NCBI GenBank assembly: GCA_963678065.2
Contig: CAXXVZ010000004.1
Coordinates: forward strand, 1 to 64,000
From: Treponemataceae bacterium
GTDB lineage: Bacteria > Spirochaetota > Spirochaetia > Treponematales > Rectinemataceae
DNA length: 64,000 nt
Reading direction: 5' to 3'
Made by a program: the position numbers and the translations under genes. Positions within the stretch are counted from its first letter, which is position 1; each line of letters begins with the position of its first letter. Positions 27,568 to 44,772 of the stretch are shown here, one piece after another. The notes below the pieces were generated by a model. The model saw only the letters and a program-made list of their open reading frames with translations, did no database searches and had not been told where the DNA came from.

Positions 27568-28368
27568 CTAAGAGAGGCAACTGCCGAAGCGACTCACAAG
27601 CGATCGAAAGCCTGCAAGATCGTGGCCGCATACGATCTGCGCATTCCTCTCGGAAGCGATCCGCTCGATACGTGCGAGGGTCGCGATATAACCTTCCCTA
27701 TCCTCGAGGAAACCTGGCATGATCGGGGGTGGGCCGAAGCTCGCGTCGGTATACGCGGCATCAGATACCAGAAGGAAAGAGCCGGACTGCGGTAGATCGA
27801 CATAGAGTCCGAGCATTCCCCAAGAGTGGCCGGGACCGAAATTAAGTATCGAGACGCCTCCAGCGAGTTCGAGTTCGCCGATATCGGATTGCAGAGGTAC
27901 CCACTTCAGGTCTGCATCAAGCCATCCTTCGATATCGGAAGGGACATGGGCCCCCAAGCCTTCTTTCCGAAAAAAGGCGCAAAGGGTCTTCGTGAATTCG
28001 TCGGAGTCCACATAGATCCGCGCTTTGGTAAAGTATTTCAAGCATCCCGCATGATCCAGATGAAGATGCGAAGCCACGACGAAACGCACATCGTCAGGAG
28101 CAATGCCGAGTTCGGCCAGGCGTTCAGGCAGATATCCCCCCTCCTCCACAACATAGGGACAGGCGCGGAACGCCTCGGGCCAGCGTCCAGACATGCCTTC
28201 AGGATCACAGGCTGCATCGAAAAGAATCGCGCCTGCCTCGTGTTCGATCAGGAAGGCCTCGACAGGAATGGTGATCATGGCCTCGGGATCCCGAGAAGCT
28301 TGGTCATCCACGAGTATGTTGCTTCTCGACATGGTAATCGTTCCACAATCCAGTATGTGCATTTTCAT
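27568..28368 (-). CDS. Metallo-beta-lactamase-fold lactonase (AttM/AiiA N-acyl-homoserine lactonase family)
   Basis: SHLHLDHAG (HxHxDH), PGHSWG, LVSDAAY and CGHD. Confidence 0.9.
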   Translation of the reverse strand: MKMHILDCGTITMSRSNILVDDQASRDPEAMITIPVEAFLIEHEAGAILFDAACDPEGMSGRWPEAFRACPYVVEEGGYLPERLAELGIAPDDVRFVVASHLHLDHAGCLKYFTKARIYVDSDEFTKTLCAFFRKEGLGAHVPSDIEGWLDADLKWVPLQSDIGELELAGGVSILNFGPGHSWGMLGLYVDLPQSGSFLLVSDAAYTDASFGPPPIMPGFLEDREGYIATLARIERIASERNAQIVCGHDLAGFRSLVSRFGSCLS

Positions 28369-28461
28369 CTTCGAGCCTCGCTTGTGGTCCTTCGCGGTCT
28401 AGGTAAGCAGCATTTATCTTCTTTTCCGGAGGATGATCATTTAAGTATCATTTCAGTGCTT

Positions 28462-28489
28462 ATTTTAACTATTTTGTAGAACATGTCAA
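28462..28489 (-). promoter_or_regulatory. Putative sigma70 promoter for the lactonase
   Basis: Minus strand TTGACA (28489-28484), 16 nt spacer, TAAAAT (28467-28462). Confidence 0.5.
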
Positions 28490-28624
28490 CCAATTCATCC
28501 TGACATTGATTAACTCAAACACAAAAAACCCCTGATATCTGTCAAGCAATAGTATGGAGATACTCATTATATCATGCATAAAATATGGTCTGATAGAAAG
28601 ATCGGGGCTTGGAAAAACTGCATA

Positions 28625-28653
28625 TTGACAATTCATTAAATGATAAATATAAT
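28625..28653 (+). promoter_or_regulatory. Perfect-consensus sigma70 promoter for the dehydrogenase-transketolase operon
   Basis: TTGACA (28625-28630), 17 nt spacer, TATAAT (28648-28653). Confidence 0.8.
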
Positions 28654-28656
28654 ACA

Positions 28657-28689
28657 CAATATGAAAATGAAATGATCATTTTCATATTG
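28657..28689. promoter_or_regulatory. Operator-like perfect 14-bp inverted repeat at the predicted transcription start
   Basis: CAATATGAAAATGA-aatga-TCATTTTCATATTG. Confidence 0.7.
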
Positions 28690-28781
28690 GTCACAACAGA
28701 TACTTTCGAATTGCTTGACATGTCCTTGTTGATCGCAGCACTTTGCGACCAGACGACAATGTGGGAAAAAGAAGGTAATCC

Positions 28782-29870
28782 ATGGGAATGATGAAGGCCC
28801 TGCTCTATCGAGCCCCAGGCAGAGCGAATGGAAGCATCGCGCACGTGCCGCGTCCGGCCTGCGGGAGCGACCATGTGGTGATCAAGGTGATGGCTTGCGG
28901 AATCTGCAAGCCGGCGGAATCGAGCCACGACAGGAATGGCTCCGTCCTCGGCGCTTATCCTTGCATACCGGGCCACGAATTTGCCGGGGAAGTGGTGGAA
29001 GTCGGGGATCGCGTCCGTTCGGTCGAGGTTGGGGATCGCGTAACGGCCGACAACTCAGTCCCATGCGGCGTCTGCTATTATTGCAAGAAAGGAAAACCTG
29101 CCTATTGCGAGCATTTCGGCTCCCTTGGCCAGAACCTTCCTGGAGGTATGGCTGAGTACGTTCTCGTCGACGAGAGCCGCGTGTTCTTGATCCCCGAGGG
29201 CATCCCCTATGAACATGCCTGCCTTTGTGAGCTTATCGGCTGCTGCATACACTGCGTCGATCGATGCGGCGTCCAGTATGGGGATACGGTTGCGGTATTC
29301 GGTGCCGGGTCGAGCGGTCTCATACTCGCCCAGCTTCTCCTCCGATCGGGCGCATCGGAAGTGATCTCTCTCGACTCGGAAGAAAGCAAGCTTGAGCGAA
29401 TTGCGAAGAAGGGTGCCATCGCGATCAAGGTGGACAGGAACGACTATTCGCTCCACGAAAAAAAAATACTGGCGAGACACCCACGCGGCGTGGATATCGT
29501 CATCGACACGACAGGCTGTGCCGAACTGATGGATCGCAGCGTCGACCTACTGTCCCGCGGCGGAAAGTTCATCTGCTATTCGTTCCCGACCGGCCCCCGA
29601 CGTGCCGTAAGCCTTGATATGTCGAAATTCATCGTCAGGGAGCTCTCCTTCCTGGGCAGCACGTTTCAAAGCTTCTCATTCGACAGAGCGCTTTTGGCCT
29701 TGTCGAATGGGATCGTGGACTGCGGCATCCTGGTGACAGACGAATACCCACTCGACCGGTACTTCGAAGCCCTCGACAAGAACCTGAACGACAATACGAC
29801 GATCAAGGTTGTAATTCACCCGAACGGCAAGACCGAAGGCAGTGCAGAAGAAAAGGATAGGCAGCGATGA
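28782..29870 (+). CDS. Zn-dependent MDR-family sugar/polyol dehydrogenase
   Basis: PGHEFAGEVVEVG, GDRV, structural Zn CxxCxxC...C, GAGSSG; atypical GICKPAE segment. Confidence 0.9.
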   Translation: MGMMKALLYRAPGRANGSIAHVPRPACGSDHVVIKVMACGICKPAESSHDRNGSVLGAYPCIPGHEFAGEVVEVGDRVRSVEVGDRVTADNSVPCGVCYYCKKGKPAYCEHFGSLGQNLPGGMAEYVLVDESRVFLIPEGIPYEHACLCELIGCCIHCVDRCGVQYGDTVAVFGAGSSGLILAQLLLRSGASEVISLDSEESKLERIAKKGAIAIKVDRNDYSLHEKKILARHPRGVDIVIDTTGCAELMDRSVDLLSRGGKFICYSFPTGPRRAVSLDMSKFIVRELSFLGSTFQSFSFDRALLALSNGIVDCGILVTDEYPLDRYFEALDKNLNDNTTIKVVIHPNGKTEGSAEEKDRQR

Positions 29871-30904
29871 AGAATCAGGCGATCGTGATGACCGACGTAA
29901 GGAAATTCGAGATTCGGGATATCGAGATGCCAGTCATCGGCGACGACGAGGTAGGCATCAAGGTGGAGAGCGTAGGAATCTGCGGCTCCGACATGCACTT
30001 CTTCGAGGGAAAGGCCTTCCACATATTCCCGAACTCTCTGCCCTTCGTCCTCGGCCACGAGTGTGGAGGCGTAGTCTTCGCCAAGGGCAGGAATGTCAAG
30101 AAGCTCGAGATCGGGGACCGCGTAGCGATCGAGCCGGGCGTCCCTTGCGGCACCTGCGAGTTCTGCCACTCGGGCAAGTACAACCTCTGCCCGAGTGTCG
30201 TCTTCCTCGCAACTCCCCCGCACGAAGGAGCGCTGAAGCGCTACATCTCCTTTCCCGCACACAAGACCTTCAAGCTCCCCGACAACGTCTCCACCCTGGA
30301 GGGCGCTCTCATCGAACCCCTTTCCGTCGGGATACACGCCGTCGTGACGGGAGGGGTTTCTCTCGGCACGACCGTTGCGATACTGGGCGGAGGCTGTATC
30401 GGGCTATGCACAATGCTCGCGGCTAAAGCCTGGGGAGCCTCGAAGATAATCGTTTCCGACCTCTTCACAAACAGACTTGAGAAAGCCCTCGAACTCGGCG
30501 CGGACTGTGTGGTGAATTCCTCGAGCGAAGATGCGGTCGCAAGGATTCTTGAGCTCACGGACGGCCAAGGTGCCGACATTGTCTTCGAGACGGCCGGGAG
30601 CAACGTTACAGCTGCCCAGACGAGTTTTCTCGTCAAGCGCGGTGGGACAATCGTCATGGTGGGCAATGTTTTCGGGGACACGGCCTTCAACTTCCGCAAC
30701 ATGTACAAAAAGGAAGCACAGCTCAAAAGCGTATTCCGCTACCGAAACACGTATCCGGTCGCCATCCAGGCGGTTTCGGGCGGCAAGATACCGGTCGGGG
30801 GAATAGTCAGCGCCCAATTCGATTTCGAGCATGCACAGCAAGCTTTCGAGCTCGCAGTCGACGACAAGCAGAACTGCATCAAGAACATCATCAATCTCTC
30901 ATGA
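29867..30904 (+). CDS. Zn-dependent sorbitol/YdjJ-like dehydrogenase
   Basis: GICGSDMH, LGHECGG, EPGVPCGTCEFC..GKYNLC, EGALIEPLSVG, GGGCIG and SVFRY. Confidence 0.92.
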   Translation: MKNQAIVMTDVRKFEIRDIEMPVIGDDEVGIKVESVGICGSDMHFFEGKAFHIFPNSLPFVLGHECGGVVFAKGRNVKKLEIGDRVAIEPGVPCGTCEFCHSGKYNLCPSVVFLATPPHEGALKRYISFPAHKTFKLPDNVSTLEGALIEPLSVGIHAVVTGGVSLGTTVAILGGGCIGLCTMLAAKAWGASKIIVSDLFTNRLEKALELGADCVVNSSSEDAVARILELTDGQGADIVFETAGSNVTAAQTSFLVKRGGTIVMVGNVFGDTAFNFRNMYKKEAQLKSVFRYRNTYPVAIQAVSGGKIPVGGIVSAQFDFEHAQQAFELAVDDKQNCIKNIINLS

Positions 30905-30954
30905 CGGACCTGACTCACGTTCTCACCACGTACATTCAAGAGGAGAGAAGCACT

Positions 30955-31791
30955 TTGAACGATCAAGTAAAGGAAATGAAAAAGCTCGCACTCCGGATCA
31001 GGATCGAAACCCTCCACATGCTGGCAGTCCATACCCATGGGCACGTCGGAGGGTCGCTTTCGGTGGCCGATGCCATCGCCGTGCTCTACGGCGGGCAGCT
31101 AAAACACGACCCCAATAACCCCAAATGGGAAGGCCGAGACTATTTGGTCCTTTCCAAGGGCCACTGCGGGCCTGCCCTCTATTCAGCCCTCGCCCTCAGG
31201 GGTTTCTTTCCCCTCGATACACTCATGACGCTCAATCATCTCGGCACGATACTTCCGAGCCACAGCGACAGGAACCTCACTCCAGGCGTCGACATGACGA
31301 CCGGCTCCCTCGGTCAAGGCGTGTCCTGCGCACTCGGCATGGCACTCGGCCTCAAGATCGACGGTAAAGAAAACTACGTTTACTCGATCATCGGCGACGG
31401 CGAAGCCCAGGAAGGCCAGGTATGGGAAACGATGCTCATTGCCCCTGCAAAGAAGCTTTCACGTTTCATCGTGATGATGGACAACAATAAGCAGCAGCTC
31501 GACGACTTCACTGACCAGATCAGCCCTCTTGGCGATGTACGCAAGAAAGCCGAGGACTTCGGGTGGAACGCCCTCTCGGTTGACGGCCATGATGTCGGGG
31601 CCATCAATGAGGCCATTGAGGCTTGCAAAAAGTCCGGCAAGCCCGGCTTTATCGAACTCAGGACCGTGAAGGGCAAGGGCTGGAAAGAGAAGGAAGCCGT
31701 CAACGGCAACCATGGCGTGAAGGGCATTACGCTAGACTTGGTCAAGGACGCGATCGGGCTGCTCCAGCGCGACCTTGACGATTTGTGCTAA
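30955..31791 (+). CDS. Split transketolase, N-terminal (ThDP-binding) subunit 1
   Basis: GHVGGSLS, LSKGHCGP, TTGSLGQG, GDGEAQEG...DNN and TVKGKG; TTG start after GAGGAG. Confidence 0.92.
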   Translation: MNDQVKEMKKLALRIRIETLHMLAVHTHGHVGGSLSVADAIAVLYGGQLKHDPNNPKWEGRDYLVLSKGHCGPALYSALALRGFFPLDTLMTLNHLGTILPSHSDRNLTPGVDMTTGSLGQGVSCALGMALGLKIDGKENYVYSIIGDGEAQEGQVWETMLIAPAKKLSRFIVMMDNNKQQLDDFTDQISPLGDVRKKAEDFGWNALSVDGHDVGAINEAIEACKKSGKPGFIELRTVKGKGWKEKEAVNGNHGVKGITLDLVKDAIGLLQRDLDDLC

Positions 31792-31822
31792 TACGCTGAA
31801 TGGAACGAGGAGGCTACACACC

Positions 31823-32797
31823 ATGATAAATCTGGCGAAAGAAAATACAATCGAGGCGATCGACCTTAAAGGCGCCTATATGAACGAGCTGATCCGACAG
31901 GCCGAGAAGAATCCGAACATCGTAGATGTCGAAGCGGACCTCGCGAATGTCATCAACGGTCCCGACTTTAAAAAAAGGTTCCCGGAGCGCTTCTTCGATA
32001 TAGGCATCGCCGAGCAATCGCTTTCGAGCATCTCGGCGGGCCTTTCAGCTGTCGGCAAAGTACCATTCTGCCACAGCTTCGCGTCCTTCGCCTCCCGGCG
32101 CATGTGCGACCAGAACTACATCTCCTGCGCCTACGGGCAGAACAACGTGAAGATCGTAGGCACCGACCCTGCGATTTCGGCGGGTGAGAACGGCGGCACG
32201 CACCAGGCCAACGAGGATCTCGCCCTGTTCCGACCCATCGCGGGCATCACGATCATCGAGCCCACCGACGTCGCGCTGATGACCTGGGCTATCCAAAAGG
32301 CGGCACAGAAGCACGGCGTGTTCTACATCCGGGTGCAGCGCGTCGGCAACGTGAAGATCTACGAGGAGGGCTCGACCTTCGAGCTCGGCGTGGCCAACCT
32401 CGTGCGCGAAGGCAAGGATGCGACCTTGATCGCGACCGGGAACCTCATGCTGAAGACCTGTCTCGAGGCGCGGGAACTTCTTGCGAAGGAGGGCTTCTCC
32501 GTTCGCGTGATCGACATGTTCACCGTGAAGCCCATCGACGCCGAATGCATCCTGAAGTGCGCCGCTGAAACCGGGGCCATCGTGACGGCGGAGAATCACA
32601 ATATCGTCGGCGGCCTCGGGAGTGCCGTCGCCGAAGTCCTCGCGGAAGGCGCCTGCGGAGCGCCACTGAGGCGCATTGGGGTACCTGACCGCTTCGGCGA
32701 AGTGGGCACGACGGACGAACTCCAGCGGGCCATGCACATGACCGCGGAAGACGTGGCCGACGCGGCGAAAAAGGCGATCGCGGCCAAGAAGCGCTGA
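31823..32797 (+). CDS. Split transketolase, C-terminal subunit 1
   Basis: FFDIGIAEQ, NGGTHQ, YIRVQR, FTVKPID and AENHNIVGGLG; GAGGAGG RBS. Confidence 0.93.
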   Translation: MINLAKENTIEAIDLKGAYMNELIRQAEKNPNIVDVEADLANVINGPDFKKRFPERFFDIGIAEQSLSSISAGLSAVGKVPFCHSFASFASRRMCDQNYISCAYGQNNVKIVGTDPAISAGENGGTHQANEDLALFRPIAGITIIEPTDVALMTWAIQKAAQKHGVFYIRVQRVGNVKIYEEGSTFELGVANLVREGKDATLIATGNLMLKTCLEARELLAKEGFSVRVIDMFTVKPIDAECILKCAAETGAIVTAENHNIVGGLGSAVAEVLAEGACGAPLRRIGVPDRFGEVGTTDELQRAMHMTAEDVADAAKKAIAAKKR

Positions 32798-32827
32798 AGC
32801 GCCGAGGCGCTTCGAATGCGCGAGAAC

Positions 32828-32912: not shown

Positions 32913-34052
32913 ATGATGGACCTGTTTTGTGTGAAGCCTAAGATTTGCTATTTCCAAAGTTTCATCGAGTTCCTGAGGGAGTTCAGGCTTTCCGGGACTG
33001 ACCTCATCTTGACCGAATCGATCATTTTCGACAGGTACATCAAGCCGCTCGGTCTTCCCAGCAATGTCATTTTGAAGGACCACTACGATCAAGGCGAGCC
33101 GAACGACGAGACGATCGACCGTATCTTCTCTGATACGGCGGGCATCACGATCGAGCGCATCGTGGCGATCGGTGGGGGCAGCGTCATAGACATTGGCAAA
33201 ATGATGATGATTCGCGGCGCATACCCCTTCCGCGACGTCGCCTCAGGCAAGACGCCGATCGAAACCGACAAGACTCTCATTGTTATTCCAACGACTTGCG
33301 GAACCGGCAGCGAGGTTACCAATGGCGGTATAGTGACGATGAAGGAAACCGGCCTCAAGACGGGAATAATGAGCGAAAAGCTCACGGCAAGCTTCGCAGT
33401 GCTGATACCTGAGCTCCTTGATGGACTGCCTCACAAGGTTTTCATGTACTGCTCCGTGGACGCTCTCAGCCATTCGATAGAGTCCTTCCTTTCGCCGACC
33501 CGCGGCAACGAAATGGCGAGGGCTGTCGGGGCGCGGAGCATAGAGCTGATTCTCGGCGGCTATGCTGACATGATCCGCGATGGGCAGGGAGCCCGGAAGA
33601 GCCTGCACGGCGATTTCATAATCGCGAGCTGCCTCGGCGGAATGGCAGTGAACAACGGGGGTGCAGGCCCGGTCCACGCCCTCGCCTATCCCCTGGGCGA
33701 GAAGTACAAGATGTCGCACGGTGAGTCAATATACCAGTTCCTTACTGCCGTTCTGCAGCTCTATCTTGAAGCCAAGCCCGAGGGCGAGATCCTGCGGAGG
33801 CTCGTCGCGCTCATCCGCGCGCCTCTCGAGAAGGCCGGCTTTCCGATACGCGGCGGTGACGCGTTCAGTCGGCTCGAGGAGATGCTCAACGCGGTCTATC
33901 CCGCGCGGAGGCTCCACGAGTGCGGCATGATCGAGGACGAGATCGGGATTTTCGCAGAGAGTGTCATGCGGACCAAACAGAGGTTGATCATTGCAAGCTA
34001 CATACCTTTCACCGAAGAGCACGCGAAGATCGTTTACAGGCGGCGCTACTGA
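32913..34052 (+). CDS. Iron-containing (group III) alcohol dehydrogenase, 4-hydroxybutyrate-dehydrogenase-like
   Basis: GEP, IGGGSVIDIGK, IPTTCGTGSEVT, DALSH, VHALAYPLG..Y...HGES; GAGGAG RBS. Confidence 0.88.
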   Translation: MMDLFCVKPKICYFQSFIEFLREFRLSGTDLILTESIIFDRYIKPLGLPSNVILKDHYDQGEPNDETIDRIFSDTAGITIERIVAIGGGSVIDIGKMMMIRGAYPFRDVASGKTPIETDKTLIVIPTTCGTGSEVTNGGIVTMKETGLKTGIMSEKLTASFAVLIPELLDGLPHKVFMYCSVDALSHSIESFLSPTRGNEMARAVGARSIELILGGYADMIRDGQGARKSLHGDFIIASCLGGMAVNNGGAGPVHALAYPLGEKYKMSHGESIYQFLTAVLQLYLEAKPEGEILRRLVALIRAPLEKAGFPIRGGDAFSRLEEMLNAVYPARRLHECGMIEDEIGIFAESVMRTKQRLIIASYIPFTEEHAKIVYRRRY

Positions 34053-34053
34053 C

Positions 34054-34920
34054 ATGGGCGGCAGCGCGACGGATTCGAACAATACGGGCGGCGCAGGCGA
34101 CGTGTACCGGTTCGGGATCTGCGAATGGACCCTACCGGCCTGCGGCGCCGCCGCGGTAGAACTCGCGGGCCAAGCCGGCTTCGAAGGGATACAGCTTGGC
34201 GATCTAGGAGGCTCGGCAAAGAGGTACCCCCTGTGTGACGAGAGAGTCCAGGCCGAAATACTCGAAGCCTCAGCCCACACAGGCGTGGAACTTCAGGCCC
34301 TTCACCTCCATACCCTCGTGCGCGAAGGCGGCATGATCCATCCAGCAGGCACTCAAGAAGGGCAATCCGCGATGGAGAGCATCCGCAGGGGCGTCGAATC
34401 CTGCCGCGCTCTGGGGATACCGGTCCTCATGCTCACCTCGGGCTTCGCATGCGAGATCCGCGACGAGGAAGGCTTCTTCGCCTTCTCTCGGATGCTCACC
34501 TACGCCTGCGACATCGCGGACGATTCAGGCGTGCGGATTGTCTTTGAGAGCATCCTCGGAGTACCCGACATCCTCAGGATGCGCCGGGCTACCGGCGGTA
34601 GGATGAGGATCTGCTACGATACCTTCAACATGATACGATTCGGCAGGGGCAATCCCCTCGAGGACCTCGCGCGTCTGGAACCGGACGACATCGACCATTT
34701 CCACCTGAAGGACGCCCCGCCCGACCTGAAGGGTTGTGTCCTCCTGGGCCGGGGCTGTGGCTGCTTCGACGAAGTCGCGCGCAGAATCTGCGAGACAGGC
34801 TTCTCCGGCTGGCTTGTTTCGGAAAACTACTACGCCCAGCCGCCCCTCTGCGAGGGCGGCGATCCCGTCACGCTCGCCCGCCTCGACGCTGAGATGATGA
34901 GGGCCAGCTTCAGGAACTGA
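34054..34920 (+). CDS. Sugar (phosphate) isomerase/epimerase, xylose-isomerase-like TIM barrel (AP_endonuc_2)
   Basis: AGFEGIQL, IVFES, ICYDTFN, HFHLKD, LGRG and GFSGWLVSENYY metal-site pattern. Confidence 0.82.
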   Translation: MGGSATDSNNTGGAGDVYRFGICEWTLPACGAAAVELAGQAGFEGIQLGDLGGSAKRYPLCDERVQAEILEASAHTGVELQALHLHTLVREGGMIHPAGTQEGQSAMESIRRGVESCRALGIPVLMLTSGFACEIRDEEGFFAFSRMLTYACDIADDSGVRIVFESILGVPDILRMRRATGGRMRICYDTFNMIRFGRGNPLEDLARLEPDDIDHFHLKDAPPDLKGCVLLGRGCGCFDEVARRICETGFSGWLVSENYYAQPPLCEGGDPVTLARLDAEMMRASFRN

Positions 34921-36385: not shown

Positions 36386-37684
36386 CTACTTCGCCAGATT
36401 CGGCAGGAACATTGCGATGATCGGGAATAGCAGCAGCAAGAGGACATGGAGCGTATCGGATCCAAGGAAGGGCCACAGATTCTTGAAAACCTTGCCCTGC
36501 GGAACCTTCGCCATACCGGATACCACCATGGCGCTGAGGCCCAGGGGCGGGGAGATGCCGCCGATCGTGATCATCCTGCAGCAGATTATCCCGAACCAGA
36601 CGAGATCGTAGCCCTGCTGGACGACGATAGGCGCCAGGATCGGAACAGTGGTCCACAGCATGGCGTTCTCGTCCATCGCGGTGCCGAGGACGATGTAAAG
36701 GAGGATGATGAAGCCCATGATGGCAATGGGCGGGACGTTCATGCGCCCGATCAGGTTGGCGAGCTCCGTGGGGATGTTTGTCGCGGCAAAAAAGCTCGTC
36801 AGCAGTTTGGCGCCAATCAGCATGGCGTAGATCATTCCGGTCATCTTGATCGTCGATTTCAGCGCCTCGACGATCTTCGACCAGTTGAGCCGACCGCGCA
36901 GGAGCGGGATCACAAGGGCTCCGAAGGCGCCGAAGGCGCCGCCTTCGGTCGGAGTGAACCAGCCGACTGTGAGGCCCACGAGGACGAGGCCGAACAGTAC
37001 CCAGACCTCAAGGCTCACGCCGAAGGCCTTAAACCTGTCGGCGAGGGAGAACTTGGGTCCCCTGGGTCCTTTCTCTGGATGGAGGTAGCAGATGATCCTG
37101 ATGGTGATGATGTAGAAGACGGCCTGCAGGATTCCGGGGATATAGCCGGCCAGGAAAAGCTTCGCGATGGAGGTCTGTGTCACGATTCCGTACATGATCA
37201 ACATCGCGCTGGGCGGGATGAGCAGGCCCAGTGTGCCGCCAGCCGCGAGGCTCGCGGATGCGAGCCCTTCGTCGTAGTTCGCCTTCTTCATTTCAGGAAG
37301 CGCCACGAGGCCGATGGTGGACGTCGTCGCGATGACCGAGGCACTCACCGTGCCGAAGGCGGCGCAGCCACCGATCGTCGCCATAGAGAGACCGCCGGGC
37401 AGGTGTCCGAGCCAGGCCCGCGCGGTGTAGTAGAGCTTCTCGCCCATGCCCGAGACGAACAGGAGGTTCGCCATCAGGAGGAACATGGGCAAGGCCGCGA
37501 GATCGTAGCTCGTGAGCATGTCGAACGGCACCGCCCCGGCCTTGACCAGCGCCGCCGGAAGCCCGAGGAGGAACCAGATGCCGCCCAGGGAGACCACTAT
37601 CATGTTGATGACGAGCGGCAATCCTGCGGCGAGGAATACGCAGAAGACGATCATCCCCAGAATGCCAACTTCGATGGGGCTCAT
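36386..37684 (-). CDS. dctM: TRAP transporter large permease
   Basis: LAALPMFLLM, GHLPGGL, ALPEMKK..YD, GGTLGLLIPPS, FTPTEGGA and ISPPLG. Confidence 0.93.
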   Translation of the reverse strand: MSPIEVGILGMIVFCVFLAAGLPLVINMIVVSLGGIWFLLGLPAALVKAGAVPFDMLTSYDLAALPMFLLMANLLFVSGMGEKLYYTARAWLGHLPGGLSMATIGGCAAFGTVSASVIATTSTIGLVALPEMKKANYDEGLASASLAAGGTLGLLIPPSAMLIMYGIVTQTSIAKLFLAGYIPGILQAVFYIITIRIICYLHPEKGPRGPKFSLADRFKAFGVSLEVWVLFGLVLVGLTVGWFTPTEGGAFGAFGALVIPLLRGRLNWSKIVEALKSTIKMTGMIYAMLIGAKLLTSFFAATNIPTELANLIGRMNVPPIAIMGFIILLYIVLGTAMDENAMLWTTVPILAPIVVQQGYDLVWFGIICCRMITIGGISPPLGLSAMVVSGMAKVPQGKVFKNLWPFLGSDTLHVLLLLLFPIIAMFLPNLAK

Positions 37685-38241
37685 TTGTTCCACTCCTTCC
37701 TGATGGCCAACCAGGCTTTGCTGGCGACGATGGTCGTCCAGAGGAGCAGCCCGATCACGAACAGAATCCTGAATGGGATGTAGTTGATCCGCAGCGCGGC
37801 CGAATACTCGCCCACGGCGAAGCAGTCTATCACCTGGGATGCCGAACTCCAGACGAGGACGCCGAGGACGGCGATGTACAGGAGCTGGTTGAATATGAAG
37901 AGTATGATCCTGGGAACCTTGGGGAGCCTGCTGACGATGCCGTCCGACGAGATGTGGCTGGCGCATCGCTCGGTGTAGCTGAACGCGAAGGTCACAGCCA
38001 GGATCATGCTGACCTCGGTTATCTCGTAGAGGCCGATGATGACTTTGCCAGTGAGGGTCCGCCTGATGACATTGGCGGAGATGAGAAGCACGCCCGCGGA
38101 TAAGCCTATTCCTGACAGGACGGCGCCCCAGCCCGCAAGCCTATACAGGACACGCAACAGAGGATTTACCTCCGTATCTTCCTGCAACCCTTCGTACTTG
38201 TCGATGATTTCTAGCACATCCTGCTGATCAGGCACTTCCAT
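37681..38241 (-). CDS. dctQ: TRAP transporter small permease
   Basis: Four TMs, NVIRR...EITE and HISSD; between dctP and dctM; GGAGG RBS. Confidence 0.88.
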   Translation of the reverse strand: MEVPDQQDVLEIIDKYEGLQEDTEVNPLLRVLYRLAGWGAVLSGIGLSAGVLLISANVIRRTLTGKVIIGLYEITEVSMILAVTFAFSYTERCASHISSDGIVSRLPKVPRIILFIFNQLLYIAVLGVLVWSSASQVIDCFAVGEYSAALRINYIPFRILFVIGLLLWTTIVASKAWLAIRKEWNK

Positions 38242-38340: not shown

Positions 38341-39453
38341 TTACTGGTACCTGAATTCCTTCCAGACGTCTTCGTAGGTGAGGCCTTTGTCATTGTACTC
38401 CGCGATGAGATCGCGCAACTGTTTTAAAATCCTCGTGCCGGGCAGTCCCTGGTCGTTGAGCCGTTTGGCGGTGACTTCGGCGACAGGAGCCCAGAGCGCG
38501 TCCCACTTTGCCTTCTCCGCTGGGGACTGGGCAAGAAGTACGACGCCGGCCTTTCTAGCGGCCTCTTCGCCCTTCCTGGTGGCGCTCATCTGCGCCTCAA
38601 GGGCGAACTTATTCCACTCCGTATAGCTTTCTACGATGAGCTTCTGGAGGTCAGCCGGGAGTTTGTTGAAGGAAGCCTTGTTCCACATGCGGTTTGTGCT
38701 CGCGGTGACAGGCGGGGCGTAGAGGCTCTGGTACTTTAAAACCTCATAGAACCTGAATGAGTACACAGCCTCGTAGGGGCAGATGTTTCCCTGAACTATG
38801 TTCTTCTGCATCATCAGGTAGGCCTCGCCCATGGGAACGGTGACAGGCTGGGCGCCGACGGCCTTGAGGACGTCCACGCTCGCGACCGAGGTTCGAATGC
38901 TCAGTCCCCTGAGATCTTCCACGCCGTTGATCGGCTTTTTCGTGGTCCACATGAAGAAGGGCTGAGCCATTTCATGGACCTGGATCGGGATCGTGTTGGC
39001 GGGATATTCCGCCTGGAGTTCGGGGGTGGACCAGAAGAACTTGTTGTGGATGAGAAGCGCTGCGGGGGTGTTGTTGCTGCCCGCCATCATGTTCCGCTCG
39101 TCCCTGAAGATCGGGAAGCCGGTTTTGCCGTAGGCGGGATCCGTGTAGCCCAGGTCGGCCACGCCTCGGGCTATTTCCATGGGACCATTCTCGTTGCTAA
39201 TCAGAGTCGCTCCCCAGTAGCGCTGGAACTTGATCCGTCCATTGGAAATCTTCTCGACATAGTTCATCCACTGCTCGTCTGCCGCCGCGTAGGGATGAGG
39301 CGGGGTCTGGATGGACGCGAACTTGAGGGTGATCACGTCCGCAGCGAAGACTGAAACCGCTGGAAGCAGTATCATGGCCAGGATCATCAGCAAGACCAGA
39401 ATGCCCTTGCGCCCGAGAGTACTCCGGATCATCGATCGACTAGAATTCCTCAT
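38341..39453 (-). CDS. dctP: TRAP transporter substrate-binding protein
   Basis: Signal peptide; SNGRIKF, KPINGVEDLRGLSIRT (conserved Arg), VPMGEAY and FNKLPADLQ. Confidence 0.9.
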   Translation of the reverse strand: MRNSSRSMIRSTLGRKGILVLLMILAMILLPAVSVFAADVITLKFASIQTPPHPYAAADEQWMNYVEKISNGRIKFQRYWGATLISNENGPMEIARGVADLGYTDPAYGKTGFPIFRDERNMMAGSNNTPAALLIHNKFFWSTPELQAEYPANTIPIQVHEMAQPFFMWTTKKPINGVEDLRGLSIRTSVASVDVLKAVGAQPVTVPMGEAYLMMQKNIVQGNICPYEAVYSFRFYEVLKYQSLYAPPVTASTNRMWNKASFNKLPADLQKLIVESYTEWNKFALEAQMSATRKGEEAARKAGVVLLAQSPAEKAKWDALWAPVAEVTAKRLNDQGLPGTRILKQLRDLIAEYNDKGLTYEDVWKEFRYQ

Positions 39454-39562: not shown

Positions 39563-40612
39563 CTACTCGTTGGGATGAATAATCACCTTCACAGCGGTCT
39601 TGTCCGTCTTATTGACCTCGAGGGCTTTGAAATAGTCATCGAGGGGAAACATATGCGAGACCATGTTGTCAAGCTTGACCTTCCCGTTCGCGATGTACTC
39701 GATCGCTTGCGGAAAGCAATAGGTCTGAGCCGAGCAGGAAATATACTGTTGCTCCCTATAGTGAAGCTGATTGAGCATGCCCGACGTGATATCGAGGGTT
39801 TCAGCAGAATGGAAGCTACCGTATTGCAGGTACCTGCCTCCCTTGCGCAGGAACTTGAAGAGGCTCTTCACCATCGGCCAGGACCCGGCTGAATCGATCA
39901 CGGCGTCGACGCCGTGGGGGAACATCTGGGCAATTGCCTTCTCGTGCACCGAGAAATCATCGCGCGCGGCCAGGATCGCAGGCACCCCACAGGCCGCGAG
40001 CCAGTCAAGTCTGTCCTGTCTGAGGCCGATAGCCGCCACTTTCTCGGCGTCGGAGAGATGCGCCAATTGGGATAGTATGAGCCCGTGAGGGCCCATACCG
40101 GTTACAAGGATGTTCTCGCCGAGCTTGGGCTTCAAAAGCTTCATCGCATGGACCGCGCAGGCGACCGGTTCGGTGATGGTCGCGTTATCGAAGGAAATAT
40201 GATCGGGTATCGCGAAGACCTTGGACTTCTCGACGAGGACATATTGCGCGAAACCGCCGTTGATATTATGGCCGAGCGAGCCGAAGTTTTCGCAGTAGAG
40301 CGAGTTGTCGTGCTGGCACTCGTAGCAGTCGCCACAGAGCACGGTATTGTCCGCCGTGACCCTGTCTCCTGTCTTCACCTTCGTGACGTTTTTGCCTATC
40401 TCCTCGACGTAGCCGGCGAACTCATGCCCAGGGACTACAGGATACTTCGCCAGGCCGGTACCCGTCGTGTCGTGGCCGATCTCAGCCCACTTGCAGATGC
40501 CGGCGGCCATCACTTTGATGATCACCTGATCGTCTCCGCAGGTGGGGTACGGGATATGACGGACGCTTCCCTTGCCGGGCGCATCGTAGACTAAAGCTTT
40601 CATCACTCGCAT
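39563..40612 (-). CDS. Zn-dependent MDR-family dehydrogenase (paralog of 28782-29870)
   Basis: GICKWAE, PGHEFAG, GDRVTADN, CGDCYEC...C, GMGPHG and KVIIHPN. Confidence 0.9.
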   Translation of the reverse strand: MRVMKALVYDAPGKGSVRHIPYPTCGDDQVIIKVMAAGICKWAEIGHDTTGTGLAKYPVVPGHEFAGYVEEIGKNVTKVKTGDRVTADNTVLCGDCYECQHDNSLYCENFGSLGHNINGGFAQYVLVEKSKVFAIPDHISFDNATITEPVACAVHAMKLLKPKLGENILVTGMGPHGLILSQLAHLSDAEKVAAIGLRQDRLDWLAACGVPAILAARDDFSVHEKAIAQMFPHGVDAVIDSAGSWPMVKSLFKFLRKGGRYLQYGSFHSAETLDITSGMLNQLHYREQQYISCSAQTYCFPQAIEYIANGKVKLDNMVSHMFPLDDYFKALEVNKTDKTAVKVIIHPNE

Positions 40613-40647
40613 GCGCTAATCTCCTCAGAGATGATTGATGATTTGGC

Positions 40648-41097
40648 TTATACGAGCCTTTCGAGTTCATCCGCTGGTATATCGTATTGGTCAATGCGGG
40701 ATTGCGCTCCCGAAGCGGATACAAGGAGCATATTCGAGCATGGCGAATCCTCGCCCGTGCGGATGAAGAACTTGGCATCGGCAGCCAGGTCCCTAAAGTT
40801 CTCGAAACTTGCATAGGTAAGGTCTTGGCGCCTAAAGACGGCCTTCACCGCGGTATCGAGCCTTGGATTCGACTTCGGCGCGGTGTCCATGAGCGTTACG
40901 CTCTGGACGATGACTTCGCCGCAAATCGCCTTGAGCGTCTGCATGAATCCCGGTACTCCGCGCGTGAGAGCGAGGTCGATTTTGCGGGCATTTTTCGGGA
41001 TCGGGAAGCCTATATCGCAAATGACGAACGAGTCAAAATGGCCGAGACGGGTTACTTCGAACATTAACGCCGCGTTTAGAATTCCGTGCTTCTTCAT
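40648..41097 (-). CDS. rbsD: RbsD/FucU-family pyranase/mutarotase
   Basis: MKKHGILN, LGHFDSFVICDIGFPIP, IDLALTRGVP and IRTGE. Confidence 0.88.
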   Translation of the reverse strand: MKKHGILNAALMFEVTRLGHFDSFVICDIGFPIPKNARKIDLALTRGVPGFMQTLKAICGEVIVQSVTLMDTAPKSNPRLDTAVKAVFRRQDLTYASFENFRDLAADAKFFIRTGEDSPCSNMLLVSASGAQSRIDQYDIPADELERLV

Positions 41098-41201
41098 CAG
41101 GAGTCATTCCCCTCGCTGAAGGAGCGCGAACCGACGTCTACGCGATCTTGCGCTTGCCCGAGACTCGCGGCGCGGAGCGGCCCACCCGCGCCTATATCCG
41201 C

Positions 41202-41951
41202 TCAGGGCCCCGCTATCGTGATCTCGACGCCTGCGGCCTTGAGATTGGCCAGAAGGACTTTGTCCGTGATGGGGCGCGAGGTGATCAATTGGTGTATCTG
41301 ATCGAAGCGCGCAAAGAGGACGACCGCCGATACGTTGAATTTGCTCGAATCGCACAATAGCACGACGCGCTTCGCGGATTTTATCATCGCTTTCTTGATG
41401 CTCGCCGAAAAAGGCGATACGCAGGTGAGGCCGTTTTTCGGGTCGATACCCGTCGTTGACAGGAACAGCGTTGAGGCCTGGATATTGCTGAGGAAATGCT
41501 CGGCATCCGGGCCGATGATCGTCTGTTGCCTGCCGATGAGCACGCCGCCCGTCAAGATGGTCGTCACATCGGTTACGGCGAAGGTGTTCGCTATCGCTAT
41601 GGAATTCGTGATTACCGTCAAATCCTTCTTGCTTACCAGTTGGTTCGCCAGGGAGAGTGTCGTCGTGCCGGAATCCAGGATGATCGACATCCCATCCTCT
41701 ATGAGCTTGGCTGCACATTTGGCTATCGCCATCTTTTCGTCCGAGAACAGGATATTTCTCGTGGGGAAGGGATTGACGATCTTCGCGGCCCCATGCGTGC
41801 GCATGATGGCGCCTGACTTCTCCAGATAGGAGAGATCTCGCCGAATGGTCGCTGGAGTCACATTGAAGCGCTTGATGATGTCTTCCACCCTCATTGAGGT
41901 CTCGAGGCTCAACATCTTGATGATTTCCTGGCGTCGCAGTTCTGTACTCAA
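41202..41951 (-). CDS. DeoR/GlpR-family transcriptional repressor
   Basis: RRQEII, VTPATIRRDL..LE, RTHGAA, ILDSGTTT, TVITNS and LCDSSKF; TTG start after GGGAG. Confidence 0.93.
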   Translation of the reverse strand: MSTELRRQEIIKMLSLETSMRVEDIIKRFNVTPATIRRDLSYLEKSGAIMRTHGAAKIVNPFPTRNILFSDEKMAIAKCAAKLIEDGMSIILDSGTTTLSLANQLVSKKDLTVITNSIAIANTFAVTDVTTILTGGVLIGRQQTIIGPDAEHFLSNIQASTLFLSTTGIDPKNGLTCVSPFSASIKKAMIKSAKRVVLLCDSSKFNVSAVVLFARFDQIHQLITSRPITDKVLLANLKAAGVEITIAGP

Positions 41952-42058
41952 ATCTGCTACTCCCTGTATATAGTAATGTACAGATAGCAAATGTTACCAT
42001 CATACGCTCCAAATGACAATCATTAGTCAACCATACCTGATTCTTTCATCCCATTCCT

Positions 42059-42090
42059 CTTGATATGAAAAAGAAAAGTATCATATCAAG
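42059..42090. promoter_or_regulatory. 10-bp inverted repeat upstream of deoR (operator-like)
   Basis: CTTGATATGA-N12-TCATATCAAG. Confidence 0.5.
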
Positions 42091-42135
42091 GCTGCTCTCT
42101 GGTCCACATCGCACAGATCTACTGAGTCGAAGTGG

Positions 42136-42612
42136 CTAGCCCTTGAATGCCTCAGCCTCGTAGTGCGCCCACTTTGCGGCACCGGATTCGAGGCGCACCT
42201 TGCGCTCGGGCGTTACACCATACGCGAACTCGGTCTCGAGAAACACGTCGATGATCTCGCAGGCCATACGGATGCTCGTTGTGGTCCCGCCAATCGCGAT
42301 GATGTTCGCGTTATTCACAATGCGGCTCTCGCGCGCTGCCCAATAGCTTTCAACAAGGGCACATCGTGCTCCCATGTTCTTGTTAGCAGCGATACTGATC
42401 CCTACTCCTGTGGCACAAATCACTACCCCACGCGCGGCTTCACCGCTCGTGACGGCCTTCGCCACGTTGCGCCCTACATCCATGTACCACACTGGATGCT
42501 CCGCGTCCCGAGTCCCCAGATCCAGTACATTGTGTCCCTTTCCGATGAGGTGCTTCTTCACTTCCACCTTCAACTCGTAACCACCGGGATCTGCGCCTAG
42601 TGCGATCGTCAT
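42136..42612 (-). CDS. rpiB: RpiB/LacA/LacB-family sugar isomerase (divergent)
   Basis: IALGAD.GG..LK, VLDLGT, GVVICATGVG..IAANK, NNAN and FLETEF; GGAGG RBS. The symbol is family-level only. Confidence 0.88.
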   Translation of the reverse strand: MTIALGADPGGYELKVEVKKHLIGKGHNVLDLGTRDAEHPVWYMDVGRNVAKAVTSGEAARGVVICATGVGISIAANKNMGARCALVESYWAARESRIVNNANIIAIGGTTTSIRMACEIIDVFLETEFAYGVTPERKVRLESGAAKWAHYEAEAFKG

Positions 42613-42712
42613 GCTTCTACCTCCGTTTTTCCAACTAACGCTTCAGTGCATGCATCCTCACGCTCTCCGCAATTTCCAGAAAACGTTCAAATACGTTCTT
42701 TTTGTTCTGAAG

Positions 42713-42748
42713 CTATCATATGATAGACTAGCTATTATCACTTGTCAA
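42713..42748 (-). promoter_or_regulatory. sigma70 promoter for the rpiB unit with a palindrome over the -10 box
   Basis: Minus strand TTGACA (42748-42743), 17 nt spacer, TATCAT (42725-42720); palindrome CTATCATATGATAG at 42713-42726. Confidence 0.65.
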
Positions 42749-42859
42749 GAAAAATGCAAATTTTTTGTTTATACAGAATATACCATAAATACTTATTTTA
42801 TTCTTTATATAATATACAATAATACTATTTCATATAATTCAGTGTAATTCGATAATGGC

Positions 42860-42888
42860 TTGACAGTTCCATAAAATGGTTTCAGAAT
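42860..42888 (+). promoter_or_regulatory. Putative sigma70 promoter for transketolase pair 2
   Basis: TTGACA (42860-42865), 17 nt spacer, CAGAAT (42883-42888), within a very AT-rich spacer. Confidence 0.45.
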
Positions 42889-42989
42889 ACCATATAGATT
42901 TATCATTACATATGTATTTATTATCATTTCAGCTATTTGATGTTCTTTTTTCGAACATTGCACAAATCCAAGAGAAGGTGGACGAAGGC

Positions 42990-43829
42990 ATGAGTAGAAT
43001 GGAAATAGCCCAACTGAAGCTCACGGCCATCAAATGCCGGCAGAACGTGCTCCGCATGATACGAGCGAATCGCTCCGGGCACCTCGGTCCGGCCTATTCC
43101 TGCATTGATATCGTGACTGCCCTCTATTTCCATGGGATGAACGTCGATCCCGGGAACCCGGACAAGCCCGATCGCGACCGCTTCCTTCTTTCTGCAGGGC
43201 ACAAGGGAATGGCGCAATATGCAGCGCTCGCAGAAGCTGGCTTCTTTCCGAAGGATGTGCTCGACACCTTCGGACAGTTCAAGTCCCGGATACCCGGCCA
43301 TCCCGACATGCATAAGCTTCCGGGGATCGAGGCGAATACGGGAGCCCTTGGACACGGTCTTGGCCTCGCATGTGGCATGGCACTCTCGCTGCGCCTCGAC
43401 CGCTACAAGTCGCGTGTATTCGTCCTCCTCGGCGATGGAGAGTTGGCGGAAGGCTCCAATTGGGAGAGTGCGGCGATCGCGGCGCACTATCGCCTCGACA
43501 ACCTTGTCGCCTTCATCGACCTGAACGGCCTGCAGATCAGCGGGCGTACGAAGAACATTATGAGCTTCGAACCCGTCGGTGAGCACTTCGCCGGCTTCGG
43601 CTGGACGACTCGTGATATCGATGGCAACAAGATGGAAGACATTGTAGACGCACTGGACGCTCTTCCCTTTGAAAATGGAAAACCAAGCCTCATCGTTGCG
43701 CATACGATCAAGGGCAAGGGATTTTCGGATGCCGAGGACGCAGCGGCGTATCACTATTGGAACGCGACTGAGTCGGACTTGTCCCGTGCAGAGCGGGAGC
43801 TCGCGGAAGCGATCGGGAAGGTGGACTGA
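42990..43829 (+). CDS. Split transketolase, N-terminal subunit 2
   Basis: GHLGPAYS, DRDRFLLSAGH, PGHP, NTGALGHG, GDGELAEGSNWE...DLNGLQ and HTIKGKG. Confidence 0.93.
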   Translation: MSRMEIAQLKLTAIKCRQNVLRMIRANRSGHLGPAYSCIDIVTALYFHGMNVDPGNPDKPDRDRFLLSAGHKGMAQYAALAEAGFFPKDVLDTFGQFKSRIPGHPDMHKLPGIEANTGALGHGLGLACGMALSLRLDRYKSRVFVLLGDGELAEGSNWESAAIAAHYRLDNLVAFIDLNGLQISGRTKNIMSFEPVGEHFAGFGWTTRDIDGNKMEDIVDALDALPFENGKPSLIVAHTIKGKGFSDAEDAAAYHYWNATESDLSRAERELAEAIGKVD

Positions 43830-43830
43830 A

Positions 43831-44772
43831 ATGAACTACGAGATGATCGATGCCAAGAAAGTGATGGGTGAAGCCGTCTACGAGATGGCGCGGGACCACG
43901 AAAATATCGTCATGATATCGACGGACAGCGCGAGCCGCTCCGGGTTCTCCGCATTCATCAAAGATTTCCCGGACCGCTACTTCGAGCTGGGAATAATGGA
44001 GCAGTCAGCCCTGAGCGTCGCGTCGGGCTTCGCGACGACAGGGAAAATACCCATATTCTGCGCACCGGCTCCCTTCGTGACTGGCCGGCCTTTCGAGATG
44101 TTCAAGGTAGACTTGGGCTATATGCGGCAGAACGCCAAGATCATCGGGAGAAATTGCGGCTTTAACTATTCGGACCTTGGCCCGACGCATTATGGGTTGG
44201 AAGATTATGGCCTCATCAGGATGATACCAAAGGTCGTCATCCTCGCTCCGCAGGATGCCTCGGAGTTAAAGGCTGCGATAAAAGCAATGCTGGAATACGC
44301 TGGGCCTGTCTACCTCCGGTTGAGTGCGGGACCGATACCGAGGATCTTCGACGAAAAACCCTTCCAGATCGGCAAAGGGAATGTCATCCGCGATGGCAAA
44401 GACATTGCGATAGTGACAACCGGGGAAATCACCTTCAACGTTCTCGCGGCAACAGAAGCTCTGGTAAGCTACGGGATCGACCCCATGGTGATCGGGATGC
44501 CCACAATAAGACCCATCGACGAGGCGCTCGTGATCGAGGCCGCGAAAAAGACCGGCAAAGTCGTCACTGTCGAAGAGCACTTCGATATCGGCGGACTCGG
44601 TACGATCGTCTGTGAGCTTTGCAGTGCATCCTGTCCAGTACCAGTACTGCGACTAGGAGTCCCAAGCGACTACATAAACTCCGGGCCTTATAAAGACCTA
44701 ATGGCGGAGGTCGGCCTGGATACCGATCACCTGGTCGCGAAAATTGCGGAGTTTGCGAAAAGAAAGCTTTAA
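43831..44772 (+). CDS. Split transketolase, C-terminal subunit 2
   Basis: YFELGIMEQ, LGPTHY, GPVYLRL, TIRPID and VEEH...GGLG. Confidence 0.93.
   Translation: MNYEMIDAKKVMGEAVYEMARDHENIVMISTDSASRSGFSAFIKDFPDRYFELGIMEQSALSVASGFATTGKIPIFCAPAPFVTGRPFEMFKVDLGYMRQNAKIIGRNCGFNYSDLGPTHYGLEDYGLIRMIPKVVILAPQDASELKAAIKAMLEYAGPVYLRLSAGPIPRIFDEKPFQIGKGNVIRDGKDIAIVTTGEITFNVLAATEALVSYGIDPMVIGMPTIRPIDEALVIEAAKKTGKVVTVEEHFDIGGLGTIVCELCSASCPVPVLRLGVPSDYINSGPYKDLMAEVGLDTDHLVAKIAEFAKRKL

Follow-up and report, generated by a model that had tools for sequence, protein, structure and literature searches.

How could a bacterium take a sugar apart with two different transketolases and no sugar kinase? The question is raised by a block of genes at positions 27568..44772 of a 64,000-nt stretch of Treponemataceae bacterium DNA (GenBank assembly GCA_963678065.2, contig CAXXVZ010000004.1, positions 1 to 64,000; below, the window). 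A sequence-only reading of the window had proposed a kinase-less catabolic island, with two split transketolases (TKs), for an anionic sugar, either a carboxylate or a sulfonate. We propose that the block probably encodes an undescribed, kinase-free, two-transketolase route acting on an unphosphorylated sugar acid. The evidence is a core gene set shared among phyla, the lack of sugar kinases across these loci, and the remodelled active sites of three of the enzymes.

All 18 genes listed in that reading are present between these coordinates, as found by open reading frame (ORF) calls and by Pfam and NCBIfam scans, and each was confirmed by Pfam. The expression "one block" needs correcting: the genes form four transcription units, with the RpiB gene on the minus strand. 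Gaps within the units are mostly below 150 bases. Unit 1 (minus strand) is the lactonase gene alone; unit 2 (plus) carries ADH1, ADH2, both TK1 genes, the iron-dependent alcohol dehydrogenase (Fe-ADH) and the TIM barrel; unit 3 (minus) carries RpiB, DeoR, RbsD, ADH3, DctPQM, VOC and the short-chain dehydrogenase (SDR); and unit 4 (plus) carries the two TK2 genes. Composition is the sole test made of the label "island": the GC fraction of the block genes is 0.51-0.63 versus 0.61 for the contig. The named members of the 90% protein clusters covering the block proteins are Rectinemataceae. The genes are as follows.

27568..28368, minus strand: lactonase of the metallo-beta-lactamase fold (Pfam MBL, HLHLDH motif), AhlS-like (below cut-off); accessory
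28782..29870, plus strand: ADH1, zinc-dependent dehydrogenase with an unusual C-G-I-C-K motif, 43% identical to its paralogue ADH3
29867..30904, plus strand: ADH2, zinc enzyme of the sorbitol-dehydrogenase type, predicted maker of the 2-ketose donor; core
30901..31791, plus strand: TK1 N-terminal subunit (Pfam); core
31823..32797, plus strand: TK1 C-terminal subunit, substrate site K/V/D/N/R; core
32916..34052, plus strand: Fe-ADH of the 4-hydroxybutyrate (4HB) dehydrogenase clade, carboxylate Arg retained; core
34054..34920, plus strand: AP_endonuc_2 TIM barrel, epimerase/isomerase-like, without a characterised close relative; accessory
34932..35747, minus strand: SDR (Pfam)
35872..36360, minus strand: VOC (Glyoxalase_4) protein (Pfam), start codon uncertain; accessory
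36386..37684, minus strand: TRAP importer subunit DctM (Pfam/NCBIfam)
37681..38241, minus strand: TRAP importer subunit DctQ (Pfam)
38341..39453, minus strand: TRAP binding protein DctP, Arg187 present, at most 28% identical to the DctPs of related loci
39563..40612, minus strand: ADH3, zinc-dependent dehydrogenase of an uncharacterised clade; core
40648..41097, minus strand: RbsD-family pyranase/mutarotase (above the NCBIfam cut-off); accessory
41202..41990, minus strand: DeoR-family regulator (Pfam/NCBIfam), start codon uncertain; core
42136..42612, minus strand: RpiB-family isomerase, catalytic Cys retained, G-G-R-H motif and two His gone; core
42990..43829, plus strand: TK2 N-terminal subunit, in an ORF open from 42876, with the ATG chosen behind a ribosome-binding-like GAAGG; core
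43831..44772, plus strand: TK2 C-terminal subunit, substrate site K/R/N/L/A; core

Is this assortment of genes a chance one? Relatives came from two scans: one of metagenomes with TK2-C, which gave nine loci among 600 stretches, and one of GTDB by ADH3 alignment, in which 25 of 64 parts were searched and 80 of 557 relatives retained. Fifteen related loci, from about 10 lineages (five pairs appear near-duplicate), come from Clostridia, from the Anaerolineaceae of the Chloroflexi and from metagenomes. The gene set, being conserved in three phyla, is not a chance one. Its core comprises two zinc-dehydrogenases, RpiB, both transketolases, Fe-ADH, DeoR and, mostly, an MFS transporter. ADH3, ADH2, RpiB and both TK2 subunits are found in 15/15 loci, Fe-ADH and DeoR in 14, TK1 in 13 and the MFS transporter in 12. 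Core identities across the loci are mostly 55-75%, those of Fe-ADH and DeoR being lower. Less constant are ADH1 (10 loci), the TIM barrel (9), VOC (8), DctM (7) and an ABC binding protein (4); rarer still are the lactonase and a phosphotriesterase-type hydrolase (2 each) and RbsD (1), and the SDR is found in none.

Eight of the GTDB loci, found without a TK as query, have an ADH3 of at least 55% identity, and six of these carry both TKs (Suipraeoptans, two Clostridia metagenome-assembled genomes, an Oscillospiraceae, an Anaerolineaceae and Flexilinea). The seventh, L012 of Faecalicatena contorta, has an FGGY kinase and a class II aldolase instead of TKs, and the eighth breaks off where its contig ends, its genome having no match at the TK2 level. 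Two copies of the cluster, L093 (without the MFS gene) and L099 (without TK1), are damaged, through either decay or assembly error.

The cluster is rare, and its ecological weight is probably small. A search with TK1-C at an E-value of 1e-110, made in 401 genomes from the phylum of the window and in 151 from the Flexilinea family, found one genome in each group, namely the starting genome. At 1e-95, TK2-C was found in 6/301 and 3/301 genomes of two clostridial families, all of the sister type described below except that of the starting genome, G065. The best match in a plasmid search with TK2-C was 46% identical.

The window contains no FGGY or PfkB kinase gene: six-frame searches of the genome gave 21 FGGY and 24 PfkB matches, all outside it. 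Pfam scans of 76 chosen window ORFs, from the 120 of at least 150 residues, detected no phosphotransferase system (PTS) or other sugar kinase. These results agree with the sequence-only reading, which had found neither sugar kinase nor PTS in the 64 kb. A ROK gene at 61178-62287 has an N-terminal extension and reads as a repressor rather than a kinase. A kinase-free 17 kb is weak evidence alone, because about 40 kinase genes in 5.27 Mb lead one to expect only about 0.13 per 17 kb by chance. Moreover, the genome has 12 split-TK pairs and one full-length TK, and N-terminal inspection places an FGGY kinase within about 7 kb of only 3/12 pairs.

The related loci are the more informative comparison. 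Homologous clusters consistently carrying FGGY or PfkB kinases, which that reading had named as the pattern that would speak against it, are not what was found: by BLAST of all ORFs against references, FGGY, PfkB and ROK kinases occur in 0/15. These loci hold 100 unassigned ORFs of at least 180 residues, 70 of which were scanned with Pfam and include no sugar kinase. The other 30, judged by N termini only, are V-ATPase genes, translation-operon genes with adenylate kinase, transporters and regulators. In genome G063, a fragment of an aldolase is located about 13 kb beyond the cluster.

TK1 and TK2 are only 35% (N halves) and 32% (C halves) identical. Their substrate sites were read at five positions, 358, 385, 461, 469 and 520, by anchoring on ChTK-C (6yaj). 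We take these numbers to be those of E. coli TK, in which Asp469 presumably binds the 2-hydroxyl of the acceptor. ChTK-C has R/S/H/D/R; TK1 (K/V/D/N/R) differs at 4/5 positions and TK2 (K/R/N/L/A) at 5/5. The corresponding motifs given in PMC11659671 are R-S-F-H-R for phosphate-using TKs and R-A-F-D-R for the sulfofructose (SF) transketolase. Arg358 is retained in only 1/62 members of the TK1 clade (two rows are gapped there), versus 38/39 in the next tier, and 35/62 members have T-C-A-N-R. In a quick tree, TK1 shares a clade with the genome's own R-A-D-N-R enzyme of the sulfo-TK type, with a Shimodaira-Hasegawa-like approximate likelihood ratio test (SH-aLRT) value of 99. The TK2 site is K-R-N-L-T/A in 14/15 rows, the Lys and Arg being invariant. 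Its sister clade has R-S-N-L-N in 8/8 members, with an FGGY or DhaKL kinase in 7/8 fetched loci, and possibly cleaves tetrulose phosphates. Across the genome, at least nine substrate-site motifs occur among the 12 split-TK pairs, which could serve as a natural panel in studies of specificity. The sister-clade loci (L100, L108-L114) always carry RpiB, mostly a kinase, DeoC-like, DHDPS-like or transaldolase-like aldolases, and lactaldehyde or glycerol dehydrogenases. A structure model of TK2-C (mean predicted local distance difference test, pLDDT, 62.5) was too poor for reading the pocket and was not used.

The RpiB of the cluster tells a similar story. The Arg of its G-G-R-H motif, which we take to be a phosphate-related residue, is absent in 16/16 rows and retained in 8/8 kinase-linked RpiBs. 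The window's RpiB is 35% identical to the genome's SqwI-like gene and groups with it at 91 SH-aLRT, on a long branch of a quick tree. A His10-to-Pro change was dropped as evidence, being common to kinase-linked RpiBs. Judged by these residues, TK1, TK2 and RpiB appear to have moved away from phosphate together with the loss of the kinase. The claim of kinase independence is thus strengthened by the kinase-free loci and by the remodelled phosphate sites of all three enzymes.

From the gene content, its conservation, the absent kinase and the remodelled sites, all of which are observed, we infer every reaction and the order of the reactions, as follows. The zinc-dehydrogenases (ADH3 and/or ADH1, with ADH2) would convert the substrate to a 2-ketose whose far end is a carboxylate. 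From this 2-ketose acid, TK1 would transfer the C1-C2 unit to an acceptor, RpiB would isomerise the resulting aldose to a ketose, and TK2 would remove a second C2 unit, leaving an aldehyde without a 2-hydroxyl. Fe-ADH would reduce the residual aldehyde acid, with NAD+ regenerated, and the cell would export the hydroxy acid so formed. The C2 units would pass to glyceraldehyde 3-phosphate (GAP) or another acceptor of central metabolism, and the route would be fermentative overall. TK2 is placed last because Leu469, in place of Asp, suits a product aldehyde without a 2-hydroxyl, which cannot isomerise further.

What kind of acid would this be? The choice between carboxylate and sulfonate, left undecided in the sequence-only reading, now favours a carboxylate and disfavours a sulfonate. 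The reasons are the 4HB-type Fe-ADH with its Arg, the monocarboxylate-type MFS transporter, the YdjJ-like ADH2, and relatives of TK1 in inositol loci. The best PDB match to the Fe-ADH is the 4HB dehydrogenase Cvir-Hbd2, at 269 bits, the next being 89.5; the match to the SarD model is 98 bits, with a cut-off of 700. According to PMC13495136, Cvir-Hbd2 is C4-selective and the R348A change raises its Km about 50-fold. Arg348 is present in 16/16 aligned Fe-ADH rows, and the Asp/His3 iron site and Tyr256 are retained as well. The cluster Fe-ADHs differ from Cvir-Hbd2 in having an extra Lys two residues before Arg348, Glu for Asn34, and Ile, Val or Asn (mostly Ile/Val) at position 270, where Cvir-Hbd2 has Asn. 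Residues near the tunnel are mostly smaller, the I-S of Cvir-Hbd2 being replaced by G-G, G-A or S-G, and the gamma-aminobutyrate (GABA) transaminase context is missing. From these residues, we infer that the substrate is a hydroxylated omega-oxo acid. An unrelated copy in L017 is alone in having Asn at both 34 and 270, with an adjoining class III aminotransferase.

The two types of MFS transporter tested are nearest the SfMCT lactate transporter, at 216 and 254 bits (below the cut-off of 320). ADH2 is 49% identical to E. coli YdjJ, in a sister clade at 90 in a quick tree; the genome's true YdjJ is 65% identical to that of E. coli. As reported in PMC9602453, YdjH and YdjI, the operon partners of YdjJ, prefer long-chain sugars with carboxylate ends, the best being an octuluronate. 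The same YdjI reaction is mentioned in PMC11194214, and neither of the two gives an activity for YdjJ.

The nearest outgroup of TK1 was examined in 12 loci (32 ORFs scanned). Four have a type II GAPDH-like and PGK-like pair with a LarAH6 malate racemase, three of the four adjoin inositol genes, and an IolD-like hydrolase occurs in 3/12. The outgroup reads as one that would cleave 2-deoxy-5-keto-gluconate, a carboxylate. As shown in PMC12016104 and PMC13527115, a TK is able to cleave 5-keto-gluconate, and an R358I/H461S/R520Q variant of E. coli TK is improved on it (PMC12016104). The malate-racemase loci (L132, L133, L134 and L140, in clostridial genomes G1447, G1449, G1384 and G1239) have a split TK with R/K-S-D-N-R, malic enzyme in two cases, and inositol neighbours IolG/IolD/IolB/IolE; no IolC-type kinase or aldolase was seen near the split TK. 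They likely represent an undescribed transketolase route from inositol via malate semialdehyde to malate. Another three loci (L139, L141 and L142) pair an IolD-like thiamine-diphosphate hydrolase with a split TK, two having an RpiB-like protein and two a malonate-semialdehyde-type dehydrogenase; this would be a second kinase-free arrangement of the cyclitol type.

It is tempting to go further. A final aldehyde of the C4 size suggested by the Fe-ADH family would be malate semialdehyde or a similar compound; the donor of TK1 would then be a C8 3-deoxy-7-keto acid. A C8 3-deoxy acid, yielding 2,4-dihydroxybutyrate, is thus our leading, if tentative, candidate; an example is 3-deoxy-D-manno-oct-2-ulosonate (KDO) after reduction at C2 and oxidation at C7. 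KDO itself, found in lipopolysaccharide and in pectin rhamnogalacturonan II, or its lactone or anhydro forms, can be named as the pathway substrate only with much reserve. With its ketone moved from C2 to C7 by two dehydrogenases, it would become a 6-deoxy-6-substituted analogue of D-fructose. By a Fischer-projection check, the product has the D-fructo configuration, as in sulfofructose. TK1, RpiB and TK2 would then take four carbons without ATP, and 2,4-dihydroxybutyrate would be excreted. The longer tail of such a substrate would also account for the loss of Arg358. Against KDO, an aldolase is a simpler way to split it. A C6 keto-uronate, possibly cyclitol-derived and ending as glycolate or a tetronate, is a candidate as tentative as the C8 acid, and another acid is a real possibility, if not a probable one. 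The example of the sequence-only reading, a 5-keto-hexonate ending as glyoxylate/glycolate, is possible and fits a C4-type Fe-ADH less well than does a longer substrate. Three candidates were set aside on general chemical grounds: isosaccharinate has no C3 hydroxyl beside the ketone; with apiose and hamamelose, RpiB or the 4HB-type ADH would lack an explanation; and assimilating tetronates by the reverse route would be uphill and leave TK2 unused.

How the substrate enters is less clear. Arg187 of the window's DctP, in the motif GLSIRT, aligns with the Arg of the TRAP structures 4n6d and 5im2, and the isethionate-binding DctP 8t9t is among its top four PDB matches. Across the clusters, the DctPs belong to three unrelated families. 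As a cluster marker, DctP was abandoned: no relative above 37% exists in 60 kin genomes, and a protein search gave five clusters above 50%. Two lactonase families recur among the related loci. Since the TRAP importer, the lactonase, RbsD and the SDR are all accessory, the oxidative front end (aldose to lactone to aldonate) that had been envisaged is not established. The front-end genes are also joined to the kinase/aldolase back end of L012 and, in L023/L127 and L024/L126, to a pyruvate-dehydrogenase (PDH)-like E1/E2/E3 complex; this suggests three modes of cleavage for a single class of substrate. In L012 and in L128/L017 (genome G068), the front end consists of RbsD, ADH3, ADH1, the TIM barrel, a phosphotriesterase-type hydrolase and an ABC importer, accompanied by a 2-hydroxyacid dehydrogenase and an aldo-keto reductase. 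L023/L127, L024/L126 and L025 have multi-copy ADH1, TIM barrel, VOC and Arg-less DctP genes, with the PDH-like E1/E2/E3, lipoate ligase and lactonase in place of transketolases.

Several observations weigh against a kinase-free route for a sugar acid. The carboxylate Arg is absent from 7/10 related DctPs, so the GLSIRT Arg stressed at the outset, while correctly aligned, is weak evidence about the ligand. A ribose-type ABC importer, whose binding protein has only ribose-type matches (1e-5 to 1e-8), is present in 4/15 loci, so that the imported compound may be neutral, and an NMT1/TauA-type ABC system adjoins the cluster in two lineages (L095 and L106). In view of these three features, the substrate may be imported as a lactone or as a neutral precursor. 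For the MFS transporter, there is no homologue in the window's genome. Two cationic residues persist in TK2, and Lys358 and Arg520 are present in the window's TK1; phosphate binding is still possible. TK1, having lost Arg358, may bind GAP less well. The roughly 40 FGGY/PfkB matches elsewhere in the genome could act in trans. The trees are quick ones without bootstrap, and the ADH2-YdjJ and RpiB-SqwI-like joins reach only 90-91. Finally, nine of the 15 loci were found via TK2 and six via ADH3, making those counts partly a matter of construction; in L099, TK1 is missing and there are broken genes, and L096 is cut off.

The same kinase-free chemistry might serve a neutral sugar whose far end does not allow phosphorylation (a deoxy, O-methyl or anhydro sugar, or a polyol), ending in a diol. 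The single Arg of the T-C-A-N-R members of the TK1 clade, the Arg-less DctPs and ribose-type importers, and the sorbitol-dehydrogenase type of ADH2 would all suit such a substrate. We consider it unlikely in view of Arg348 and its neighbouring Lys in the Fe-ADH, the monocarboxylate type of the MFS transporter, the invariant Lys and Arg of TK2, and the recurrent lactonases.

Quite unlikely is a route through phosphorylated intermediates, in which a kinase encoded elsewhere feeds unusual sugar phosphates to both transketolases. No sugar kinase was found in the 15 loci of three phyla, and three enzymes have lost residues of the phosphate site that are retained in their relatives, whether kinase-linked or canonical; set against this are the many kinases available in trans, the kinase-linked sister clade of TK2, and the ADH3/ADH1 front end that accompanies a kinase and aldolase in F. 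contorta.

A sulfonate or phosphonate sugar other than sulfoquinovose (SQ), handled by an offshoot of the sulfo-TK pathway, is very unlikely. The sulfoglycolytic transketolase pathway (SqvD, SqwGH, SqwI and SqwF/SqwDKL; PMC11659671 and PMC12890257) also has no kinase, a split TK, an RpiB-type isomerase and a metal-dependent ADH, with two C2 removals, as predicted here. In the quick trees, TK1 and RpiB fall with sulfo-TK-type genes of the genome itself (99 and 91, above), the isethionate-binding DctP is among the top PDB matches, and NMT1/TauA-type systems adjoin two loci. The logic anticipated for the block is in this respect borne out. In contrast, the sulfo-TK pathway makes both cuts with one TK, and the block has two distinct ones. 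At four aligned positions, TK1 has K-V-D-R or T-C-A-R and TK2 K-R-N-A/T; the genome's TK at C4:84 kb has R-A-D-R there, and the SF motif of PMC11659671 is retained by neither block enzyme. Zinc-dehydrogenases replace the SQ isomerase and glycosidase, the Fe-ADH is much nearer 4HB dehydrogenase than SarD, and the MFS is of the monocarboxylate type. Among the 18 genes and 15 locus cores, judged by family and without an SqvD reference sequence, there is no glycosidase or SqvD-like isomerase, so the conclusion that this is not the classic SQ locus holds; neither a sulfoquinovosidase nor a TauE-type exporter was seen. The block thus appears to follow sulfo-TK-like logic outside that pathway, failing on motif, TK number and entry enzymes. 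The genome has a separate cluster of the sulfo-TK type at C4:83275-91275 (G000; L115:3150-11276), with an R-A-D-N-R TK, two RpiBs, a SauS-like dehydrogenase (below cut-off), a SucCD-like pair and a DASS transporter; by its gene content it matches the sulfoacetate variant of PMC12890257. N-terminal inspection of the other split TKs of F. contorta revealed no sulfo-TK-like locus.

Hardly credible are two parallel one-cut routes (ADH2 with TK1; ADH3 with RpiB and TK2) for related substrates with Fe-ADH and regulator in common: the frequent gene order ADH3-RpiB-TK2 then ADH2-TK1 and the separate transcription units of the window's TKs agree with them, but both TKs occur together in 13/15 loci, the exceptions being the cut-off contig L096 and the broken L099, and no TK1-only cluster exists among the eight ADH3-selected loci.

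Nor does the block appear, from its sequences, to be a ydj, AptAB or housekeeping-TK system. It resembles the E. coli ydj cluster (YdjE-L) in its DeoR, two zinc-dehydrogenases, MFS transporters and YdjJ-like ADH2, but TK1, RpiB, TK2 and Fe-ADH stand in place of the ydj kinase, aldolase and aldo-keto reductase. YdjL shares only 27-28% identity with ADH1 and ADH3, and the 18 block proteins include no match to YdjH, YdjI or YdjG. A true ydj-like cluster lies elsewhere in the genome (G000 C3:2288523-2297667; YdjL 52%, YdjG 60%, YdjI 62%, YdjJ 65%, YdjH 50%), with an extra FGGY kinase and aldolases. The apiose transketolase route of AptAB uses the kinase AplK, an FGGY protein encoded adjacently. 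Like AptAB, the block has a split TK, and Leu469 is common to TK2 and the genome's FGGY-linked TK at C5:575 kb, taken to be AptB-like without a reference sequence; unlike AptAB, no kinase adjoins the block, and Arg358 and Arg520 are replaced in TK2. The D-apiose route is named in PMC13753588. The TK cleavage of 5-keto-D-gluconate to tartaric semialdehyde (PMC12016104 and PMC13527115) likewise uses an unphosphorylated keto acid, and the engineered changes at 358 and 461 (PMC12016104) parallel the natural residues of TK1. It differs in being, as there described, an engineered or side activity of a full-length TK, with one cut followed by oxidation and no dedicated cluster. We found no description of such a cluster in the literature, although the supplements of the sulfo-TK papers, which were not covered, could list some.

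If the proposal is correct, sugar carboxylates would join sulfosugars as substrates of kinase-free transketolase catabolism, each of the two cuts would have an enzyme adapted to it, and a defined nine-gene core would be available for reconstitution. Natural TKs that prefer unphosphorylated keto acids are a goal of engineers (tartrate from 5-keto-gluconate), and the identity of the substrate may illuminate the natural substrate of the E. coli ydj operon. Should KDO be that substrate, the route would be a transketolase counterpart of the kinase/aldolase ydj route, and anaerobic scavengers could feed on the remains of Gram-negative cells.

Some minor observations complete the picture. The TIM barrel has no PDB match at 1e-4, and Atlas matches to it and to the VOC protein are generic families. 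The predicted structure of ADH3 (pLDDT 89.8) finds generic medium-chain dehydrogenases/reductases, the best being 30% identical to an uncharacterised Sinorhizobium meliloti protein. The block is flanked by two other sugar units. At 18122-27512 is a separate unit with a lacto-N-biose-phosphorylase-like gene, DHDPS-family and HpcH-family aldolases, an ABC importer and a two-component system. At 44896-51691 is a pectin-type unit consisting of a GDSL esterase, an ABC importer, a GH88 hydrolase and a LacI regulator.

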